A stretch of DNA of 64,000 bases from the NCBI GenBank assembly GCA_965243415.1, contig OZ251549.1, forward strand, positions 2,555,632-2,619,631, given 5' to 3'. A program made the translations under genes and the position numbers. This document shows, piece after piece, positions 4,130 through 11,449 of the stretch. The notes beneath the pieces were generated by a model. That model did not search any database. It was not told the DNA's origin and worked only from the letters and a program-made list of their open reading frames with translations. Source of the stretch: Candidatus Marinacidobacterium sp. GTDB lineage: Bacteria; Acidobacteriota; Vicinamibacteria; Marinacidobacterales; Marinacidobacteraceae. The stretch's first letter is position 1. The number at the start of each line of letters is the position of its first letter.

Positions 4130-4873
4130 GTGCGGACGCCCGGCGCCGCCCGTTCCCCGGTACTGTTCTCCCCGCCCGTGCCCCACCACCGCGACCGCCG
4201 GAAGGACCGGCAGCACCACGGCGGGCGGCGGCCCTGGTGGAAGTCCTTCCGCACCACCGCCGCCGTCGGCTACGCCGTGCGGCACTACGAGGGCGCCTGG
4301 AACCGGATGGTGGCGGAGCGGGCCGGGGTGGTCGCCGGGGACCGCATCCTGGACATCGGCTGCGGGCCGGGGCACGGGGCGATCCTGCTGGCGGAGGCGG
4401 CGCCGCGGGTCGAGGTGCGGGCGGTGGACCCGGCCTGGCCGTTCGTGCTGGTCACCGGGTTCCGGGCGTTCCGGAAGCGGTTGACGGTGCTGGCGCGGAA
4501 CGGGGCGGCGGAACGCCTGCCGGCGCCGGACGGGTGGGCGACGCTGGCGGTGTCGGTGAACGCCTTCCACCACTGGGCGGCGCCCCGGGCGGGGTTGGCG
4601 GAGGTGCGGCGGGTGCTGGCGCCCGGGGGGCGGCTGGTGCTGGTGGACGAGATCTTTTCCGAGGACCACCGGCACACGAAGTTCCACCGGGAGGAGGAGA
4701 CGGTGGACCCGGTGCATGCCGGGAGCCCATCGGTGCGGGAGTGGCTGGCCGGGTTGGGGTTCGTCGGGATCACGGTGGAGCGGGTGGAGGACGCCGAGGA
4801 GACGCCGCACCACCTGCTGCGGGCTTCGGTTCCGGGGGCCGGTTCCGGGGCGGCGGGGGCGGCCGGGGGCTGA
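4130..4873 (+). CDS. class I SAM-dependent methyltransferase
   Basis: Contains ILDIGCGPGHGA (SAM-binding motif I) and a downstream LVLVDE acidic motif. The exact start is uncertain; the first ~40 residues of the ORF look low-complexity, and an internal start near 4300 is possible. Confidence 0.6.
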   Translation: MRTPGAARSPVLFSPPVPHHRDRRKDRQHHGGRRPWWKSFRTTAAVGYAVRHYEGAWNRMVAERAGVVAGDRILDIGCGPGHGAILLAEAAPRVEVRAVDPAWPFVLVTGFRAFRKRLTVLARNGAAERLPAPDGWATLAVSVNAFHHWAAPRAGLAEVRRVLAPGGRLVLVDEIFSEDHRHTKFHREEETVDPVHAGSPSVREWLAGLGFVGITVERVEDAEETPHHLLRASVPGAGSGAAGAAGG

Positions 4874-5106
4874 GTCGGGGGGGAGAAAGCGCGGAAGGCG
4901 TGCCGGGACCGGGTCCTGCCGACACCCGGACCGCCGATGCCGGGAGTGGTAGGTTCCCGGATGGCGCACGTGAGACGGTAAAAATCTGCCTGCCGTAACC
5001 GGCCCCGTCAGGGGTGAGTGTGCAATGTGGGGTTCTGGCGGGCCCCACCGTGCGCCACCCTGCTTCGGGCTCCGGGGTCGGGGCCGCGGGTCGGGGCCGG
5101 CCGCGC

Positions 5107-5112
5107 CCTATA
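5107..5112 (+). promoter_or_regulatory. TATAAT -10-like hexamer about 60 nt upstream of tRNA-Leu
   Basis: gcgcccTATAATcccgcg is an AT island in a GC-rich context. No clear -35 element. Confidence 0.3.
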
Positions 5113-5172
5113 ATCCCGCGCCCCGTCCGGCGGCGCCGGTCGCGGGCGGGCGCGGCGGGTGATGCGCCGAGT

Positions 5173-5258
5173 GCCGAAGTGGTGGAATGGAAGACACGTG
5201 CGCTTGAGGGGCGTATGGGATCAGTCCCGTGGGGGTTCGAATCCCCCCTTCGGCACCA
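5173..5258 (+). tRNA. tRNA-Leu (anticodon GAG), encoded CCA
   Basis: Manual fold: acceptor GCCGAAG/CTTCGGC; D-arm GTGG..CAC; anticodon stem TGCGC/GCGTA with loop TTGAGGG (anticodon GAG); long variable arm; T-arm GGGGG-TTCGAAT-CCCCC; discriminator A plus CCA. Confidence 0.85.
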
Positions 5259-5321
5259 GCGCCGCCGGTTCCCGGGGCGCCCGCGGGGGTCGGGGGCGGC
5301 GGGAGTCTTGAGGTTCTACGG

Positions 5322-5675
5322 ATGGCTTCGGGCGAGAACGCGATGACCGGGAGGGGCCGGGCGCTGGAGGATCTGTTCCTCGACCGGTGCCTGAAGGGGG
5401 CGGAGGTGCTGCGGAAACTGCTCGGTCGGCCCCGCACCGAGTTCCTGCGGATGATCGGGGAGCACGGCGCGGTCGGGGCGACGAAACGGCTCCTCCGGGC
5501 GCCGCGGGCGAGCGACACCTTCACCGTCCGGTGGGAGAAGGGGAAACTCGACCTCACGATGGAGTGGTTCGTGGTCGGCGAGCCCGAGTGGGATCCGCTT
5601 TTCGACGACGAGGATCGCCGGGCGGCGGCGCGGCGGCTGCGGGACTACGGGTGCGTCCCGCCGCGGGATTTCTGA
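5322..5675 (+). CDS. hypothetical protein (117 aa)
   Basis: ATG at 5322 with high third-position GC. Product MASGENAMTGRGRALEDLFLDRCLKGAEVLRKLLGRPRTEFLRMIGEHG... has no family I can name. It is the first gene after the tRNA. Confidence 0.45.
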   Translation: MASGENAMTGRGRALEDLFLDRCLKGAEVLRKLLGRPRTEFLRMIGEHGAVGATKRLLRAPRASDTFTVRWEKGKLDLTMEWFVVGEPEWDPLFDDEDRRAAARRLRDYGCVPPRDF

Positions 5676-5745
5676 TCCCGGTCGCGCCGGCGAGCCTGAA
5701 TCGCTCCCGGGGGCGGGGAAGCGGCTCCGGCCGGGGGTCGTCCGG

Positions 5746-6339
5746 TTACTCGGAAGAGTCTGCGGCGGGACCGGCGGGTCTCCCGGTCGCCTGTTCCAAC
5801 CGCTCCGGCATCTTCCGGGTGGCCGCCTGCCGTTCGATGCGGATCTCCCGGATTCGGGCCTCCGCTTCCGCGTCGGTCCGGTGGGCCGGGTGCTCCGCGA
5901 GGCTGCGGAGCGCCTCGATCGCGTCGCGGTTGCGGGCGCTCGGGGTGTCCGGGTCGGGCCGGACCAGCGTCGGGCGGGGCTTTGTTTCGCTCGGGGTTTC
6001 GTTCGGGGGTTCGCTCCGGGGCGTGCTCGTCGCGGTCGGGTCGGGGGGTTCAGGGGCAGGATTCAGGGCAGGGGATCGAGGTTCGGGGGGACTCGGGGGC
6101 GGGGAGTCATCGCCGGCGGGCGGCGCCACCGGCTCCTCCGGCGGCAGGTCGAACTTCTCCAGCATCTGCTGGGTGGACTCCTCGCGCATGAGGCGGATCT
6201 CGCGGATCCAATCCTCCATCTCCATCTCCATCCGCGCCGGAAGCGGTTGCGCCCGGAGTTTGCGGAGCGCTTCGAGGGCCTTGCGGTTGCGGTCGCTCAG
6301 GTCTGCCGGGCCGGTCCGGTTCGGGGGTCGCTGCGGCAT
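5746..6339 (-). CDS. protein with two tandem copies of a VapB-antitoxin C-terminal (toxin-binding)-like module, no RHH domain
   Basis: Module 1 is SDRNRKALEALRKLRAQP...EDWIREIRLMREESTQQMLEKFD; module 2 is SARNRDAIEALRSLAEHP...EARIREIRIERQAATRKMPERLEQ. They are joined by a Pro-rich linker. Both resemble the C-terminus of the VapB at 7479..7805 (QEALEALRRLRELP...EAWIREIRLMGEESDRHMLDKIARA). Confidence 0.5.
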   Translation of the reverse strand: MPQRPPNRTGPADLSDRNRKALEALRKLRAQPLPARMEMEMEDWIREIRLMREESTQQMLEKFDLPPEEPVAPPAGDDSPPPSPPEPRSPALNPAPEPPDPTATSTPRSEPPNETPSETKPRPTLVRPDPDTPSARNRDAIEALRSLAEHPAHRTDAEAEARIREIRIERQAATRKMPERLEQATGRPAGPAADSSE

Positions 6340-6395
6340 GGTTTCGCCCGGGGGTTTCGTTCCGGTCGGCGTTCGTCGCGGCCCGGTCCGGCGAT

Positions 6396-6653
6396 TCAGG
6401 GTCGGCAGGACTCGGGGGCGGGATCATCGCCGGCGGGCGGTACGACCGGCCGGTTCCCGGCCCGCGCGGTCTTGTCCAGCATCCGGCGGGTGGATTCCTC
6501 GCGCATGAGGCGGATCTCGCGGACCCAGGCCTCGCGCTCTGCGTCCGTCCGCGCCGGCGGCTGCGCCCACAGTTTGCGGAGCGCTTCGAGGGCCTTGCGG
6601 TTGCGGTCGCTGAGGGCGTCCCGGGCGGGCTGGCCGGGCGTTGGGTGCGGCAT
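6396..6653 (-). CDS. single-module antitoxin-C-terminal-like small protein (85 aa)
   Basis: Internal ATG at 6653 gives MPHPTPGQPARDALSDRNRKALEALRKLWAQPPARTDAEREAWVREIRLMREESTRRMLDKTARAGNRPVVPPAGDD. The longer N-terminal extension in the ORF track is low-complexity. Confidence 0.45.
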   Translation of the reverse strand: MPHPTPGQPARDALSDRNRKALEALRKLWAQPPARTDAEREAWVREIRLMREESTRRMLDKTARAGNRPVVPPAGDDPAPESCRP

Positions 6654-7101
6654 CGTTTCGCTCGGGGTCTTAGGCTCGGGGTCTCGTTCCTGATGGCGTT
6701 CGTGGCGGTCGATTCCGGGAGTCCGGGTCGAGGGAGGCGGATCGTCGGCGCTTCCGATTTCGTTGCCGGCGGACTGCTCGCCGGGTTCGGAACGGAGGGA
6801 ACCGGGGAAGCGGGAGGCTACCGCGCCGGATCGCGGCGCGCCGGGCGACGACCCGTGAGCCGGATCCGCGGCGCAGCGCCGCGAAGGCCACCCCGGCGCC
6901 GACGCCGCCCCGGGCGACACCCCGTGTTGCGGTAACCCCCCGGGGGCGCGAGGGCTGCCGGACGCGGTCTCGAAGGTCCCGACAGGTGGGCCTCGTTCCA
7001 TCTCTCCCGCCGCCTGCGTGTCCCCGCGTCCCTCGCTCGAGTTCGGGGGAGACGTCCGGAAGAGACGGAAACGGGCATTCCGTCGCCGGAGGCGATCCGC
7101 G

Positions 7102-7482
7102 TCAGGTCGTCAGGACGGTGAGCCCTTCGATCTCGAACCGGCGGAAGTCCGCGTAATTGCTCGTAGCCACCGCGGCGTTCGACGACAGCGCTACCGCGGC
7201 GATGAGGCAGTCCCTGAACAATTTGCGCCGCCGCCCGGAGATGTTGAAGAGCCGCGCCGCGGTCTCGGCATCGGGGCCGGTGAGCGGAACCGTTTTCGAC
7301 AGCAGTCGACGGGCGGTGCTCCTCTCGTCGGGCGTCGTCGGCCCGCACCAGAACTCGGCCCAGGCGACAGCGCTGATCTGGATCTCGGCGCCCTGGTCGA
7401 TCCACTCCTGGAGTCGCGAATGCTGCGGCAGGTCGGGATCCAGGGCTCCGATCAGGAAACTGGTGTCGAGGTGGATCGTCAC
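7102..7482 (-). CDS. vapC: type II toxin VapC (PIN-domain RNase)
   Basis: MTIHLDTSFLIG (Asp6), the AWAEF Glu, RDCLIAAVA Asp and TSNYADF are the canonical PIN acidic positions. There is a 4-nt ATGA overlap with the upstream antitoxin. Confidence 0.85.
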   Translation of the reverse strand: MTIHLDTSFLIGALDPDLPQHSRLQEWIDQGAEIQISAVAWAEFWCGPTTPDERSTARRLLSKTVPLTGPDAETAARLFNISGRRRKLFRDCLIAAVALSSNAAVATSNYADFRRFEIEGLTVLTT

Positions 7483-7805
7483 GAAGCATCGTCTCCGGAA
7501 ATCGGCTTCCTTCTCGCCCGCGCGATCTTGTCCAGCATGTGGCGGTCGGACTCCTCGCCCATGAGGCGGATCTCACGAATCCACGCCTCGGTCTCCGCGC
7601 TCGTCCTCGCCCTCGGGAGCTCTCGGAGGCGGCGGAGCGCTTCGAGCGCCTCCTGCTTGTAGGGCTTCTCCCGTTCTGCGGTGGCGCGGATGGCGCGGCG
7701 CACCGCTTCCGTCCGGGAGACCTCCCAGTGGGCGGCGAGTTCCTCCACCCGTCCGGCGGTGTCGAGGTCGAACGAGTAGGTGAACTTCCTCGTGATGCTG
7801 GCCAT
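7479..7805 (-). CDS. vapB: type II antitoxin VapB, ribbon-helix-helix N-terminus plus toxin-binding C-terminus
   Basis: Start chosen at MASITRKFTYSFDLDTAGRVEELAAHWEVSRTEAVRRAIRA (RHH beta-alpha-alpha). The C-terminal half matches the repeated module. The ORF-track start 7838 would read through the operator palindrome. Confidence 0.75.
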   Translation of the reverse strand: MASITRKFTYSFDLDTAGRVEELAAHWEVSRTEAVRRAIRATAEREKPYKQEALEALRRLRELPRARTSAETEAWIREIRLMGEESDRHMLDKIARARRKPISGDDAS

Positions 7806-7829
7806 ACAGCCATATCCTAGCGTATGGCC
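7800..7829. promoter_or_regulatory. perfect 8-bp-arm inverted repeat GGCCATAC-N14-GTATGGCC overlapping the vapB start codon (candidate RHH autoregulatory operator)
   Basis: ggccatacagccatatcctagcgtatggcc is seen directly. The spacer is an AT island. Confidence 0.5.
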
Positions 7830-8141
7830 AGCCAGCACGGGTCGGGCGGAGGATGGCCGCGGGGGAGATCGGGGTTCGCCGGCGGTCGGGAACGGCGGAT
7901 GAGCGGGGTCGGCGGGCGGGGATCCGGTCTCCGCGACCCTGCGGGCCGCCTCGGGTTCCGGCCCTGCGGAGTCGCGCTCGGCCGCCGGTCCGGCCGGGTC
8001 CCCGTTCGTTCCGGGGGCGCCTCGCCGGGGTCCGCGGGACGGCGGGCGGCCGGTTCCGGGACGACGACGGGCGGCCGCCGCGGGGCTTCCGCCGTTCTCG
8101 ATGGCAGAGGCCGGCGGCGCCTCGGGGCGGGGAGCCGGGCC

Positions 8142-8714
8142 TCAGTCGGAGTCGCGGCTGTCGGACGGGACCGGCTTCCGTCCCGCCCGTTCGAACTGCT
8201 CCTGCAGATGGCGGGTGAGCTCTTCCCGCCGGAGGCGGACTTCGCGGATCCAGGCCTCGATCTCCTCCTTCGTCCGGGTTCCGGGCAGGGTCTGCAGCCG
8301 GCGGAGCGCTTCGAGTTGCTTCCGTCTGCGTTCGATCCGGGCCGCGGGGTCGGACGGCCGGGAGGGCCGGGGCTCGCCGGGGAGCGGGTTCCCGGCGGTC
8401 GCGTCGGGCGATTCGGGGTCGGGCGATTCGGGGCCGGGCGGTACCGGTTCGGGGGAAGCGGAGGGGACGCGGGGGTGGGCGTCGTCGTCGCCGGGGGGCG
8501 GTGCGACCCACGGCATCCACGCCCGTTCCAACTTCTCCAGCAGGTGGAGAGTGGACTCCTCTCCCATGAGGCGGACTTCGCGGATCCAGGCCTCGGTCTC
8601 CTCCTGCGTCCGGGTCCCCGGCAGGGCCTGCAGCCGGCGGAGCGCTTCGAGTTGCTCGCGCCGGCGGTCACTCCGGGCGGCTGCGTCGGGCCGGTCGTCC
8701 GGTCGGGCGGACAC
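8142..8714 (-). CDS. protein with two tandem antitoxin-C-terminal-like modules
   Basis: SDRRREQLEALRRLQALPGTRTQEETEAWIREVRLMGEESTLHLLEKLERA and ERRRKQLEALRRLQTLPGTRTKEEIEAWIREVRLRREELTRHLQEQFERA, each followed by a P(V/W)...GDD tail like the other copies. Confidence 0.5.
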   Translation of the reverse strand: MSARPDDRPDAAARSDRRREQLEALRRLQALPGTRTQEETEAWIREVRLMGEESTLHLLEKLERAWMPWVAPPPGDDDAHPRVPSASPEPVPPGPESPDPESPDATAGNPLPGEPRPSRPSDPAARIERRRKQLEALRRLQTLPGTRTKEEIEAWIREVRLRREELTRHLQEQFERAGRKPVPSDSRDSD

Positions 8715-8740
8715 GGCGGCGCCTCCCGGGCGGGCTCCCG

Positions 8741-9151
8741 CTAGCGCGGGTCGGGGGCCGGGGACTCGGGCTCTGCGCCCGGCGCGGCCTCGCCGCCCTC
8801 CGGCTCGGGTTCGGCGGCGGGGGTCGTCTCGCCCGCTTCCTCGGCCTCGTCCGGGGCGGGGGTGGTCGCGGCGGGGAGGGGAACGCCGCCGGTCGCCTCG
8901 TCCACCACCGTCTGCTGGCCGGCTTCGGAGCCGATGTAGCCGAGCAGGAGCGAGGTCACCATGAAGATCGCGGCGCAGACGGCGGTCACCCGGGTGAGCA
9001 GGGTGGCGGTGCCGCGCGCGCCGAAGGCCGCCTGGGTGCCGGCGCCGCCGAAGGCGCTGGCGAGGTCCTGTCCCTTCCCCTGCTGGGTCAGCACCACCAG
9101 GATGAGGAAGACGCAGACCAGGACATGGAAGACGGTCAGGAGGATGGTCAT
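8741..9151 (-). CDS. secG: preprotein translocase subunit SecG
   Basis: MTILLTVFHVLVCVFLILVVLTQQGKGQDLASAFGGAGTQAAFGARG matches the SecG signature (hydrophobic helix, QxGKG, AFGGG), followed by an acidic Pro-rich tail. ATG verified at 9151. Confidence 0.85.
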   Translation of the reverse strand: MTILLTVFHVLVCVFLILVVLTQQGKGQDLASAFGGAGTQAAFGARGTATLLTRVTAVCAAIFMVTSLLLGYIGSEAGQQTVVDEATGGVPLPAATTPAPDEAEEAGETTPAAEPEPEGGEAAPGAEPESPAPDPR

Positions 9152-9221
9152 GGGTTCGGGGGCGGGGGATTCCCGGGCGGGAGGGATCGGGCGAGGCGGC
9201 GGGGGAAGGGATCGGCCGCGG

Positions 9222-10124
9222 TCACGCGCCGACCGCGGCGGCGCAGACGGCGAGGAAGGAATCGGCCGCGAGACTCGCGCCGCCGACGAGCAGGCCGTCC
9301 ACCTCGGGACTTTCGAGGAGCGCGGCGGCATTATCGCCGTTCACCGATCCCCCGTAAAGAATCCGGGTGGTGGCGGCGGCTTCGTCGTTCCACACCCGGG
9401 CGACCTCGGCGCGGAGGGCGCGGTGCATCGCGGCGGCGATCTCCGGGGTGGCGGTGCGCCCGGTGCCGATGGCCCAGACCGGTTCGTAGGCGAGGGTGAC
9501 GGCCGGGCGGTCCGCCTCCGGGATCGCCTCGAGGACGGCCCGCAGCTGGGCGCCGACCGCGTTTTCGGCGTCGCCGGCGTCGCGCTGCTCCCCGGTCTCG
9601 CCGACGCAGAGGACCGGGGCCAGGCCGGCGGCGAGGGCGGCTTCGGCCTTCTCCCGGACCTCGGCGTCGGTCTCGCCGAAGACCCGGCGGCGCTCCGAGT
9701 GGCCCACCAGGGTCAGCGAGCAGCCGCAGGCGGCCAGCATGGAAGCGGAGACGGCCCCGGTGAAGGCGCCGTCGGGCTTGGGGAACAGGTCCTGGGCCGC
9801 CAGGCCGATCGGGCTGCCGTGGAGGGCGTCCCGGACGGCGACGAGCGCCGGGAAGGCCGGGGCGATCGCCAGGTCGAGGGTCGGCGCCGCTTCCCCGTCG
9901 TCCGGCGTTTCCCCGGCGCGTTTCCCGGCTCTCCTGCCGGTGTTCCGTTCGGCGTTCCGGTCGGGAGGCAGGACCTCGCGGCGCGCCCGTCCGGCGATGA
10001 CGCGGGCCAGGCCCCCCGCTGCGGGCGGGGTCAGGTTCATCTTCCAGTTCGCGATGACGAACGGGGTGCGCGCGGTCGCCGCGTCTGCGGAGGGGGCCGG
10101 GGTGGAGTCCGGGGAGTCGGTCAT
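9222..10124 (-). CDS. tpiA: triosephosphate isomerase
   Basis: FVIANWKMN, GHSERR, LCVGET, AYEPVWAIGTG and ILYGGSV are TIM signatures. Start ATG verified at 10124. Contains a ~35-aa low-complexity insertion after the first strand. Confidence 0.9.
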   Translation of the reverse strand: MTDSPDSTPAPSADAATARTPFVIANWKMNLTPPAAGGLARVIAGRARREVLPPDRNAERNTGRRAGKRAGETPDDGEAAPTLDLAIAPAFPALVAVRDALHGSPIGLAAQDLFPKPDGAFTGAVSASMLAACGCSLTLVGHSERRRVFGETDAEVREKAEAALAAGLAPVLCVGETGEQRDAGDAENAVGAQLRAVLEAIPEADRPAVTLAYEPVWAIGTGRTATPEIAAAMHRALRAEVARVWNDEAAATTRILYGGSVNGDNAAALLESPEVDGLLVGGASLAADSFLAVCAAAVGA

Positions 10125-10213: not shown

Positions 10214-11449
10214 TCACGAGGGTTCCGGTTTCCTTTCGCCGCCGGACGCCGCCATCGGGAGCCAGGTCAGGGCTTCCACCCCGGGCAGGGGCTCGCCGGC
10301 GAGGAAGGCCAGCGAGGCGCCGCCGCCGGTGGAGAGGTGGCCGATGCGGTCGGCGACCCCGGCGCGGCGCACTGCGAGCAGCGAGTCGCCGCCGCCGACG
10401 ATGGTGACCGCGCCCCGGTCGGCGGCGTCGGCCACCGCCGCGGCGACCGCGTTCGTGCCGAGGGCGAAGCGGGGGTCTTCGGCGAGCCCCATCGGGCCGT
10501 TCCAGAGAACCGTAGCCGCGCCGGCGATCTCCGCGGCGTAGCGGGCGGCGGTCGCCGGACCGAGGTCGAACCCGGCCCGGTCGTCCGGCAGGCTGTCGGC
10601 GGGGAACACCGGCGGGGGATCCGCGGCGTCGGCGGGAGCCGCGCGCTGGTCTTCGGGGAGGGCCAGCCGGTCGGGATGGCGCCGCAGCAGCCGCTCGGCG
10701 TCGGGACGGCGCTCCGGTTCGACGAGCGACCGGCCGGTGGGGAGGCCCTTCGCGGCGAAGAAGGTGTAGGCCATCGCGCCGCCCACGAGCACCCGGTCGG
10801 CGCGGGCGAGCAGGGACTCGACGACGCCCAACTTGTCCGAGATCTTCGCGCCGCCGAGCACCGCCACGAAGGGCCGCCGCGGCGCGGTCAGGGCCCGGCC
10901 CAGCCAGCGGAGTTCCCGTTCCAGCAGCGGGCCGGCGGCGGCCCGGGGGAACCGGCGGGCGCAGGCGTCCACCGAGGCGTGGCGGCGGTGGGCGGCGCCG
11001 AAGGCATCGTTCGCGTACTCGTCCCCGAAAGCGGCCAGGGCGGCGGCGAACCGGGGGTCGTTCGCGGTCTCGCCGGGGTGGAAGCGGAGGTTCTCCAGGA
11101 CCAGCACTTCTCCCGGCGCGACTTCGGTGCGACGGCCTTCCGTCTCGTCGGCGCCGACCGGGCGGGGGCGGAACCGGACCGGGGCGTCGAGGAGTGCGCC
11201 CAGCCGCTCCGCCACCGGGCGAACGCTCAGCGCCGGGTCGGGAACGCCGCGCGGCCGGCCGAGGTGCGTCGCCAGGACCACCCCGGCGCCGGCCTCCCGG
11301 GCGGTCCGGATCGCCGGGAGCGCCGCCCGCAGGCGGAAGTCGTCGGCGACGACGCCGTGGTCGAGAGGCGCGTTCAGGTCGGCGCGGAGCAGCAGCCGTT
11401 TCCCCCGCAGGTCGAGGTCGGCGAGGCGCTGCCGGCGCTGCGGTTCCAC
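10214..11449 (-). CDS. pgk: phosphoglycerate kinase
   Basis: RADLNAPL, FGAAHR, GGAKISDK, GGGASLAFLAG and NGPMG are Pgk signatures. There is no in-frame ATG; GTG at 11449 is the proposed start (VEPQRRQRLADLDLRGKRLLLRADLN). Confidence 0.85.
   Translation of the reverse strand: MEPQRRQRLADLDLRGKRLLLRADLNAPLDHGVVADDFRLRAALPAIRTAREAGAGVVLATHLGRPRGVPDPALSVRPVAERLGALLDAPVRFRPRPVGADETEGRRTEVAPGEVLVLENLRFHPGETANDPRFAAALAAFGDEYANDAFGAAHRRHASVDACARRFPRAAAGPLLERELRWLGRALTAPRRPFVAVLGGAKISDKLGVVESLLARADRVLVGGAMAYTFFAAKGLPTGRSLVEPERRPDAERLLRRHPDRLALPEDQRAAPADAADPPPVFPADSLPDDRAGFDLGPATAARYAAEIAGAATVLWNGPMGLAEDPRFALGTNAVAAAVADAADRGAVTIVGGGDSLLAVRRAGVADRIGHLSTGGGASLAFLAGEPLPGVEALTWLPMAASGGERKPEPS

Follow-up and report, generated by a model that had tools for sequence, protein, structure and literature searches.

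Why would a bacterial chromosome surround a single, seemingly ordinary toxin-antitoxin (TA) pair with several additional copies of only one half of its antitoxin? This question is posed by a 64-kb stretch of DNA from Candidatus Marinacidobacterium sp. (contig OZ251549.1, positions 2,555,632 to 2,619,631), hereafter called the window, where a vapBC pair is found between positions 5746 and 8714 among three genes (designated g5, g2 and g1) made up of copies of the C-terminal half of VapB (the "module"), all of them, just like vapBC itself, on the minus strand. These "orphans" come from VapB: amplification of the 3' half of vapB has produced five additional copies, spread over three genes. The array is genuine, and it elaborates a common system in an unusual manner that is restricted to one lineage. 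The orphans are under purifying selection at the protein level, and the likeliest reading, though still an even call, is that they serve as auxiliary antitoxins devoid of a DNA-binding domain (DBD).

The repeated unit is 136 nt long (corresponding to a module of ~60 aa), and its six in-register copies (5789-5924, 6143-6278, 6460-6595, 7516-7651, 8185-8320 and 8521-8656) show 63-79% nucleotide (nt) identity to the reference copy. One hidden Markov model (HMM) takes in all of the module copies at E-values of 1e-28 to 1e-38 (1.8e-33 and 6.2e-29 for the two modules of g5, 1.4e-38 for that of g2, 1.8e-37 and 8.5e-30 for those of g1) and returns exactly six matches, and none besides, across the window, of which g5 and g1 account for two each, g2 for one and the C-terminal half of VapB for one (Table 1). 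The original prediction, made from the letters and their open reading frames (ORFs), had been right about the six minus-strand copies within 5746-8714, as both the repeat search and the HMM attest, about the coordinates of all five genes, and about the repeated unit being the C-terminal half, rather than the ribbon-helix-helix (RHH) half, of a VapB coupled to a PIN toxin; the module consensus that it offered was roughly correct, whereas its title counted six orphans where there are actually five plus the copy within VapB.

Table 1. Coordinates within the window of the array genes, of the candidate operator and of the features at the borders of the islet that holds them
Feature	Position	Strand	Description
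g5	8142..8714	-	two modules, no RHH domain; M5 ~8481-8708, M6 ~8145-8369
candidate operator inverted repeat	7797..7832		perfect 11-nt inverted repeat GCTGGCCATAC-N14-GTATGGCCAGC
vapB	7479..7805	-	RHH ~7659-7805 + module M4 ~7482-7685
vapC	7102..7482	-	PIN-domain toxin
g2	6396..6653	-	single-module orphan, 85 aa, ATG start, "downstream" class
g1	5746..6339	-	M1 ~6103-6339 ("downstream" class) fused to M2 ~5752-5979 (C-type)
orf110	5343..5675	+	conserved, convergent with the array
tRNA-Leu(GAG)	5173..5258	+	ARAGORN and Rfam; one islet border
secG stop	8741	-	other islet border

The G+C content of the window (1-64000) is 0.62-0.79 per 2 kb, mostly ~0.72, and long ORFs are open in six frames, so ORF length alone is no evidence for a gene anywhere within it. 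All five genes of the array show a coding-type pattern in their G+C content at the three codon positions (GC1/2/3), with a GC2 of ~0.55 and a GC3 of ~0.87 (0.79/0.56/0.87 for g5 and 0.77/0.60/0.89 for g2), and a longer ORF (6396..7001) extending upstream of 6653 was not deemed credible, being an artefact of the 72% G+C, because GC1/2/3 is flat there. Searches (tblastn) with VapC and the RHH domain, in which the spacers 7839-8141 and 6654-7101 were included, found no decayed RHH or PIN remnants beside the orphans, so that these are not what is left of duplicated vapBC pairs; the same searches found no second PIN or RHH elsewhere in the window, which has a single vapBC only. None of g5, g2 and g1 has an adjacent toxin gene of its own, and their modules show 36-56% aa identity to the VapB module of the window.

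The relatives of the array are metagenome contigs, mostly from one project, and comprise 14 syntenic loci (designated by L numbers below) of an uncultured Acidobacteriota lineage, each carrying 3 to 7 modules by an HMM census. Selection on the orphans was assessed by pairwise comparisons, not all of which are phylogenetically independent, under the GY94 codon model with F3x4 frequencies and a likelihood-ratio test (LRT) against an omega of 1. The 16 orthologous orphan pairs pooled yield an omega of 0.35 (LRT 72; range 72-76), and, when orphans are pooled per genome pair, seven of the eight pairs fall at 0.30-0.37 (LRT 12-32), the remaining one (L009/L093, a single orphan pair) giving a non-significant 0.63 (LRT 0.9); for g2, omega is 0.14-0.34. 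The orphan alignments shifted into frames +1 and +2 give 1.07 and 2.28 (LRT 0.3 and 46.5), and two intergenic spacers read in three frames give 0.65-2.0 (LRT < 3.5, not significant). With an omega of 0.35 in the annotated frame and of ~1 or more in shifted frames and intergenic DNA, the orphans are therefore selected protein-coding genes. That they are selected as proteins rather than simply decaying had been argued in the original prediction as well, although for a reason that fails: amino acids were held to be conserved more than nucleotides, whereas the paralogues are 36-67% identical in aa and 56-77% in nt sequence (NG86 dN/dS among the six modules of 0.42-0.97).

The constraint on the orphans is greatest in helix 2 (omega 0.19, LRT 41), followed by helix 1 plus loop (0.32, LRT 23), the leader (0.53, LRT 6.8) and the tail (0.62, LRT 3.4, not significant), and this profile parallels that of the VapB module, for which helix 2, helix 1 plus loop and the tail give 0.09, 0.11 and 0.37 (LRT 38, 29 and 4.5) and the module as a whole 0.12-0.21; depending on the region, the orphans are 1.7- to 2.9-fold (about twice) more relaxed than VapB's module. 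The other genes of the locus yield omega values of 0.11-0.20 (vapC, LRT 16-48), 0-0.09 (the RHH domain, LRT 3.9-49) and 0.01-0.15 (pgk, tpiA, secG, the methyltransferase and the deacetylase, LRT 12-189).

One could still see the orphans as non-functional by-products of unequal crossing-over in this G+C-rich and repeat-prone DNA, which would keep making partial vapB duplicates that stay open since stops are rare at 72% G+C. The openness of six frames, the 3-7 modules per locus, the occurrence of half-module remnants and of copies that are truncated, frameshifted or without a start, the near-neutral linkers and tails, and NG86 dN/dS values of 0.8-1.0 in some orphans would all suit such a reading, but the NG86 values were set aside in favour of GY94/F3x4 with controls, because NG86 is unreliable for synonymous change at a GC3 of ~0.87. 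The frame-specific omega, the constraint profile shared with VapB, the start codons and the 78-85-aa length kept in many orthologues, and the persistence of 1:1 orthologues between lineages with a secG-pgk divergence t of 0.4-0.8 largely refute the by-product reading for the array as a whole, and we consider it improbable. Premature stops or a dN/dS near 1, which had been named in the original prediction as signs of decaying duplicates, do not characterize the array as a whole, while some of the relatives' copies are indeed decaying.

Compared across loci, the array bears the marks of birth-and-death evolution, its copy number and fusion state turning over rapidly. The window, L007 and L010 have two modules upstream of vapBC, the one within VapB and three downstream (2 + 1 + 3); L091 and L094 have 3 + 1 + 3; L001-type loci have one upstream, VapB, two downstream and one half-module remnant; and L093 has two upstream modules and VapB, with neither downstream orphans nor the neighbouring orf110. 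Among the disrupted copies, the first upstream one of L007/L008 is frameshifted, the third one of L094 is out of frame, the C-type one of L010 (C-type being the class that closes the array) lacks a start, and those of L001/2/4, L092 and L093 are truncated or remnants. Gene fusions are polymorphic as well, multi-module ORFs of 179-291 aa recurring among the related loci: the orthologues of g5 are two-module proteins of 185 aa and 179 aa and three-module ones of 276/277 aa, and the 196-aa g1 fusion of the window is found again in L007/L008, whereas in other relatives its two modules are separate genes or the C-type copy has a Met of its own. As this copy starts with MPRPTPVRPDP in relatives and reads KPRPTLVRPDP in the window, the g1 fusion arose by the loss of one stop and of the second gene's ATG. 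Orthologues of g2 with 85 aa are present in most loci with downstream orphans (L001, L002, L004, L006, L007-L010 and L092), its equivalent in L091/L094 being the first part of a longer downstream ORF (called at 186 aa and 142 aa, respectively). Not all modules of the window have an ATG start and a Shine-Dalgarno (SD)-like sequence of their own, as had been supposed: g1 and g2 do start with ATG, g5 starts with GTG, and the second modules of g1 and g5 lack a start, while a convincing SD-like sequence is seen in g5 only (GGGAGG, 7 nt before the GTG), g1 and g2 having no clear one.

What the orphans could be doing depends on what the module does in VapB, and hence on the central pair, which by every sequence-level criterion is a member of the VapBC family. 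VapB consists of an RHH domain (Pfam RHH_1, 21.3 bits against a cut-off of 20.5, E 2.6e-4; a weak match to the CopG-family antitoxin 7etr/6iya in PDB sequence and fold searches) followed by the module. VapC is recognized by Pfam PIN (56.4 bits against a cut-off of 23.6, E 5.8e-15) and by NCBIfam VapC equivalog models at scores below cut-off only, and has the acidic residues expected of a PIN active site (D6, E43, D91 and D112, as read from the sequence), conserved in all 11 VapC variants. The antitoxin gene lies directly upstream of the toxin gene, is co-oriented with it and is translationally coupled to it, the TGA stop of vapB overlapping the GTG start of vapC as GTGA (7479-7482, a 4-nt gene overlap), an arrangement shared by all related loci whose contigs span both genes and by two distant homologues. 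The inverted repeat of Table 1, whose arms are 100% complementary, overlaps the vapB ATG and, going by how RHH antitoxins autoregulate, is a candidate operator.

An AlphaFold 2 (AF2) model of VapB (30-sequence alignment, pLDDT 69) has helices at residues 14-27, 31-62 and 69-99, a six-residue loop between the latter two and a disordered acidic C-terminal tail. On this model, the module begins within the last part of the long a2 helix of the RHH domain and continues through the loop (LPRART) and a helix of ~30 residues (EAWIREIRLM...) into the tail. For g5, a single-sequence AF2 model (pLDDT 54, to be read for secondary structure only) predicts the helix-loop-helix twice, the two units being joined by a disordered, proline-rich linker of ~50 residues. 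Foldseek searches of the PDB with both models gave nothing significant, the RHH part of 7etr being reached at an E of 1.1 only, while PDB sequence searches gave no match for VapC at E <= 0.01 and only chance matches for the module profile. The orphans match no named family in Pfam, NCBIfam, PADLOC or PHROGs at E <= 0.1-1, nor do they have a PDB sequence or fold match.

A function for the module is suggested by the way in which it is exchanged among related loci. The RHH domain hardly changes among 11 loci (98-100% identity, or 83-85% where L091/L094 are compared), while the VapB module (50-100%) and VapC (71-100%) vary in step, each of three module types being found, with no exception, next to its own version of VapC residues 8-27. 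In type 1 (T1: the window, L001, L002, L004, L010 and, approximately, L091), a module with ..RRLRELPRART.. and ..ARRKPISGDDAS accompanies a VapC with ..GALDPDLPQH..; in type 2 (T2: L007, L009 and L093), ..RKLWAQPPALTEEETDAW.. and ..SEDDSS accompany ..AAMRPERPEK..; and in type 3 (T3: L092 and L094), ..RKLWAQPPARTD.ERE.W.. accompanies ..NAMHADRPER... The window and L007/L009 are 95-100% identical except between about +130 and +760 nt after the vapB ATG, where sliding-window identity drops to 61-90% over the module and all of vapC, whereas L001 and L092, as well as L091 and L094, differ only between about +130 and +400, i.e., in the module and the first ~27 vapC codons. The 5' breakpoint lies at the RHH/module junction in every replaced tract, and the matched cassette appears to have been replaced at least three times independently. 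The VapC of L092 is a mosaic, with type-3 residues 1-27 and a remainder close to that of L001 (90-96% nt identity beyond about codon 27), and the minimal exchangeable specificity cassette therefore seems to be the VapB module plus ~27 VapC codons.

Co-replacement with VapC residues 8-27 points to the module as the element by which the toxin is recognized, and the chemistry of the two segments is in keeping with it, since the T1 loop is basic and faces an acidic VapC segment (DPD), while the T2/T3 loop is uncharged and Trp-containing (WAQPPA, with a basic flanking helix) and is matched with a mixed-charge, net-basic one (RPERPEK, HADRPER), a pairing that direct contact would predict. The solved structure of VapBC26, which is of the RHH type, shows VapB with its C-terminal domain in the valley of VapC helices a1-a4, where it blocks the active site (PMC5737657). 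From the co-variation, the co-recombination and this structure, we take the VapB module to be the toxin-recognition domain.

A tree of 53 modules has three clades: a C-type clade consisting of orphans only, always last in the array and matching no sampled VapB type; a "downstream" clade, in which the first and second downstream orphans group with the T2 and T3 VapB modules; and an "upstream" clade, in which all upstream orphans, both modules of g5 included, group with the T1 VapB modules. Over helix 1 and the loop, the upstream orphans share 68-86% of their residues with T1 and 45-63% with T2/T3, whereas for the downstream ones the figures are 68-90% with T2/T3 and 36-72% with T1 (for g2, which is closest to the type-3 VapB modules, 81-86% against 54-63%).

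This arrangement invites an explanation in which the orphans mainly neutralize VapC variants other than the resident one, be they alternative cassette types circulating among relatives or newcomers brought by recombination or mobile elements, as a cross-immunity (anti-addiction) collection comparable to the orphan immunity genes found by polymorphic toxin loci. The three cassette types do segregate among near-identical genomes through no fewer than three independent replacements, both orphan classes (T1-like upstream and T2/T3-like downstream) occur together in 10 of the 11 loci compared, L093 being the exception, regardless of the resident VapC type, the T2/T3-like g2 and the first module of g1 are still under purifying selection in the type-1 window, and anti-addiction has already been proposed in print for orphan antitoxins (PMC7354431). 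VapC, however, acts within the cell rather than from cell to cell, so the benefit would need frequent gene flow; no mobile element with a matching vapC was found, the C-type orphans correspond to no VapB type sampled, and the module specificities are those suggested by sequence similarity. We hold this explanation to be rather unlikely, and are similarly doubtful of its strictest form, a "specificity library" in which each orphan class would be the DBD-less counterpart of one allelic VapB-module/VapC-N-terminus cassette. Were it true, a cell with all classes would be immune to every circulating VapC, the array would both permit and record cassette switching, and the locus would be an intracellular TA analogue of the orphan immunity arrays of contact-dependent inhibition (CDI), Rhs and type VI secretion systems (T6SS), as well as a data set for the rules by which VapB-VapC pairs are insulated.

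The recombination itself might suggest that the orphans are silent cassettes, which by gene conversion would donate their sequence to vapB and so switch its toxin-binding specificity. VapB modules are polyphyletic among the orphan clades, the sister loci L091 and L094 differ in VapB type, and exact runs of up to 52 nt are shared between a VapB module and an orphan. The replaced tracts, however, invariably extend into vapC, over either its first ~27 codons or its full length, and no orphan has such sequence; the best nt identity between a VapB module and any orphan is 80-88%, so no recent orphan-to-vapB conversion is visible in the loci compared, and neither conserved starts nor selection on the protein would be needed in silent donors. 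This reading strikes us as very improbable.

A fourth possibility, co-option for something unrelated to VapC (e.g., as a helical oligomerization or regulatory protein, or as a partner of orf110), would account for the orphans not co-varying with the resident VapC, for orf110 accompanying the downstream orphans and missing in L093, which lacks them, and for the leader MP(R/Q)RPPNRTGP, conserved in downstream orphans and absent from VapB. It is nevertheless hardly probable, for constraint on the orphans peaks in the two helices that are also constrained in VapB, the orphans are found only beside vapBC and on its strand, and no family or fold match points to another function.

We return to the orphans as auxiliary, DBD-less antitoxins; in the original prediction, toxin decoys or buffers and regulators of VapC activity had been suggested as possible roles. 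Under this proposal, they would be translated and would bind the VapC protomer in the same valley as VapB does, titrating the toxin outside the operator-bound repressor complex, by which neutralization would be uncoupled from autoregulation and conditional repression; by joining two or three modules, the fusions would regain the bivalency that RHH dimerization gives to VapB. As g5 begins 27 nt past the secG stop, with no terminator-like site between the two, it is probably co-transcribed with pgk-tpiA-secG, which would tie the buffering of the toxin to housekeeping transcription. Since the orphan classes mirror the three recombining cassette types, part of the array may also neutralize VapC variants other than the resident one.

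Several observations weigh against this proposal. The orphans ignore the type of the resident toxin, being 97-99% identical when the window (T1) is compared with L007/L009 (T2); g1 and g2 are without a clear SD, and scans for promoter and terminator consensus sequences yielded no consensus. C-terminal tails block the active site in some solved VapBs, and those of the orphans are poorly conserved with respect to VapB (6-60%) and near-neutral (omega 0.62, LRT 3.4). About 8 of the ~50 orphan modules in the relatives are frameshifted, truncated or start-less, the number of orphan modules varies from 2 to 6 per locus, and the confidence of the AF2 models is low to moderate (pLDDT 54 for g5 and 69 for VapB). 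Moreover, as all relatives are metagenome contigs, some of the mosaic breakpoints could stem from strain-chimeric assemblies, although L007 and L008, which come from different assemblies, agree, and the association of the module with the VapC N-terminus spans only ~200 nt.

As for where the array came from, its distribution is narrow. A profile search of 5.8 billion proteins retrieved only 34 clusters, all metagenomic and none with a Pfam domain, made up of single-module proteins of 75-85 aa (of four recognizable types) and RHH+module VapBs of 107-112 aa. When 1.84 billion representative proteins were searched exhaustively with HMMER, 11 matches were obtained, nine of which belong to this lineage (multi-module proteins of 179, 190 and 276 aa among them), while two are distant, full RHH+module VapBs of 100 and 109 aa, each followed by a homologous PIN gene and with no extra modules nearby. 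With these distant VapBs paired and free of orphans, the ancestral state would therefore be an ordinary vapBC, and the amplification specific to the lineage, in which arrays occur even where the RHH is only 83-85% identical (L091/L094).

The 14 syntenic loci, taken from the contigs of the 34 clusters, share the order pgk, tpiA, secG, upstream orphans, vapB, vapC, downstream orphans, orf110 (on the opposite strand), methyltransferase and deacetylase. The closest GTDB species representative, a metagenome-assembled genome (MAG) of the Vicinamibacteria (Acidobacteriota; L011, OY729431.1), was found with Pgk (68% identical) in a scan that served only for placing the organism; the module profile found no relative among the GTDB species representatives. 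This MAG has pgk, tpiA, secG, a tRNA-like stretch, the methyltransferase and the deacetylase, and lacks vapBC, the modules and orf110 altogether. Because the flanks are thus present without it, the ~3.4 kb from the secG stop to tRNA-Leu constitute a lineage-specific islet, for which no att-like duplicate of the tRNA-Leu 3' end, as would be a sign of integrase-mediated insertion, was found. ARAGORN also reports a 91-nt tRNA-Pro(CGG) at 8735-8825 (+), overlapping the 3' end of secG and the start of g5, which is probably a false positive in G+C-rich DNA, Rfam giving only tRNA-Leu in 4800-9400.

The product of orf110 (105-117 aa) is encoded in every related locus that reaches past the downstream orphans and is absent in L093, the sole locus without such orphans, the contigs of L005 and L006 ending before it. 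It has no match in Pfam, NCBIfam, PADLOC or PHROGs, its NG86 dN/dS is 0.36-0.76, and it probably belongs to the same inserted islet, of which it may be a further component.

Repeats are also seen around the islet. In L011, the segment from the tRNA-Leu-like stretch to the methyltransferase (10499-11378) holds a different repeat, with overlapping ORF translations that repeat QNPNWLLWQQFGF and MQPDITPR, and the secG/tRNA-Leu junction looks like a hotspot of repeated DNA in both lineages. Upstream of pgk (whose start is at ~11449 on the minus strand), the window has 44 same-strand copies of the 14-nt motif CGGATCGACCCGAT at <=1 mismatch between 11693 and 13040 (+), where 0.2 would be expected by chance; they mostly lie 24-31 nt apart, with spacers that vary, TRF gives periods of 31, 56 and 85, and the array recurs upstream of pgk in related loci with 1-26 exact copies. 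The motif is too short for a CRISPR.

Orphan antitoxins are common in genomes, and their function is largely guesswork; here they are unambiguous domain-only paralogues under selection, and they adjoin a naturally polymorphic interface of three matched types, which brings the system down to ~10 small proteins and three toxin alleles. It bears on neutralization versus autoregulation, on tandem multivalency versus antitoxin dimerization, and on the residues that set VapB-VapC specificity and cross-talk. If the cross-immunity explanation is true, the locus would lend sequence-level support to the anti-addiction idea at a chromosomal TA locus; if it is false, the array would still clearly exemplify how an antitoxin domain evolves by birth and death.

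Among known systems, the RHH-type VapBC26 and VapBC3 of Mycobacterium tuberculosis and FitAB of Neisseria gonorrhoeae are the nearest to the central pair, which differs from them in having five further copies of the toxin-binding region alone on its two sides, and from known VapBs in that its C-terminal module fits no Pfam VapB or antitoxin family. The orphan antitoxins described so far (e.g., the chromosomal CcdA of Erwinia or those of a Klebsiella survey) are likewise antitoxin-derived and without a toxin partner of their own. To our knowledge, they are usually whole antitoxins scattered in the genome, whereas those described here are domain-only, paralogous to an adjacent intact antitoxin, arranged in tandem on both sides of the pair and partly fused into multi-module proteins. 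Neither a description of nor a precedent for such arrays of domain-only antitoxin paralogues was found in the literature searched. Three candidate explanations have been put forward for orphan antitoxins in general, namely that they are remnants, regulators or anti-addiction elements (PMC7354431).

Like PaaA2 and epsilon, the orphans are proposed to be short, mostly helical or disordered neutralizers. PaaA2 (of paaR2-paaA2-parE2) and epsilon (of omega-epsilon-zeta) are antitoxins without a DBD, a separate protein taking care of DNA binding and regulation; there, they are the sole antitoxin, unlike the present locus, where a complete VapB coexists with several DBD-less paralogues, and the searches of Pfam, NCBIfam, PADLOC, PHROG and the PDB did not place the orphans in either family. 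Polymorphic CDI/Rhs toxin loci carry orphan toxin-tip/immunity modules downstream, and the present locus is similar to them in having tandem, diverged specificity modules by a functional locus, whose matched cassette is switched by homologous recombination at a conserved junction. The CDI/Rhs orphans pair a toxin C-terminal fragment with its cognate immunity gene, whereas no fragment of vapC lies beside any orphan here, so that only the antidote module, and never a piece of the toxin, has been multiplied; as VapC is, furthermore, not exported, the likeness is an analogy of logic, not homology.

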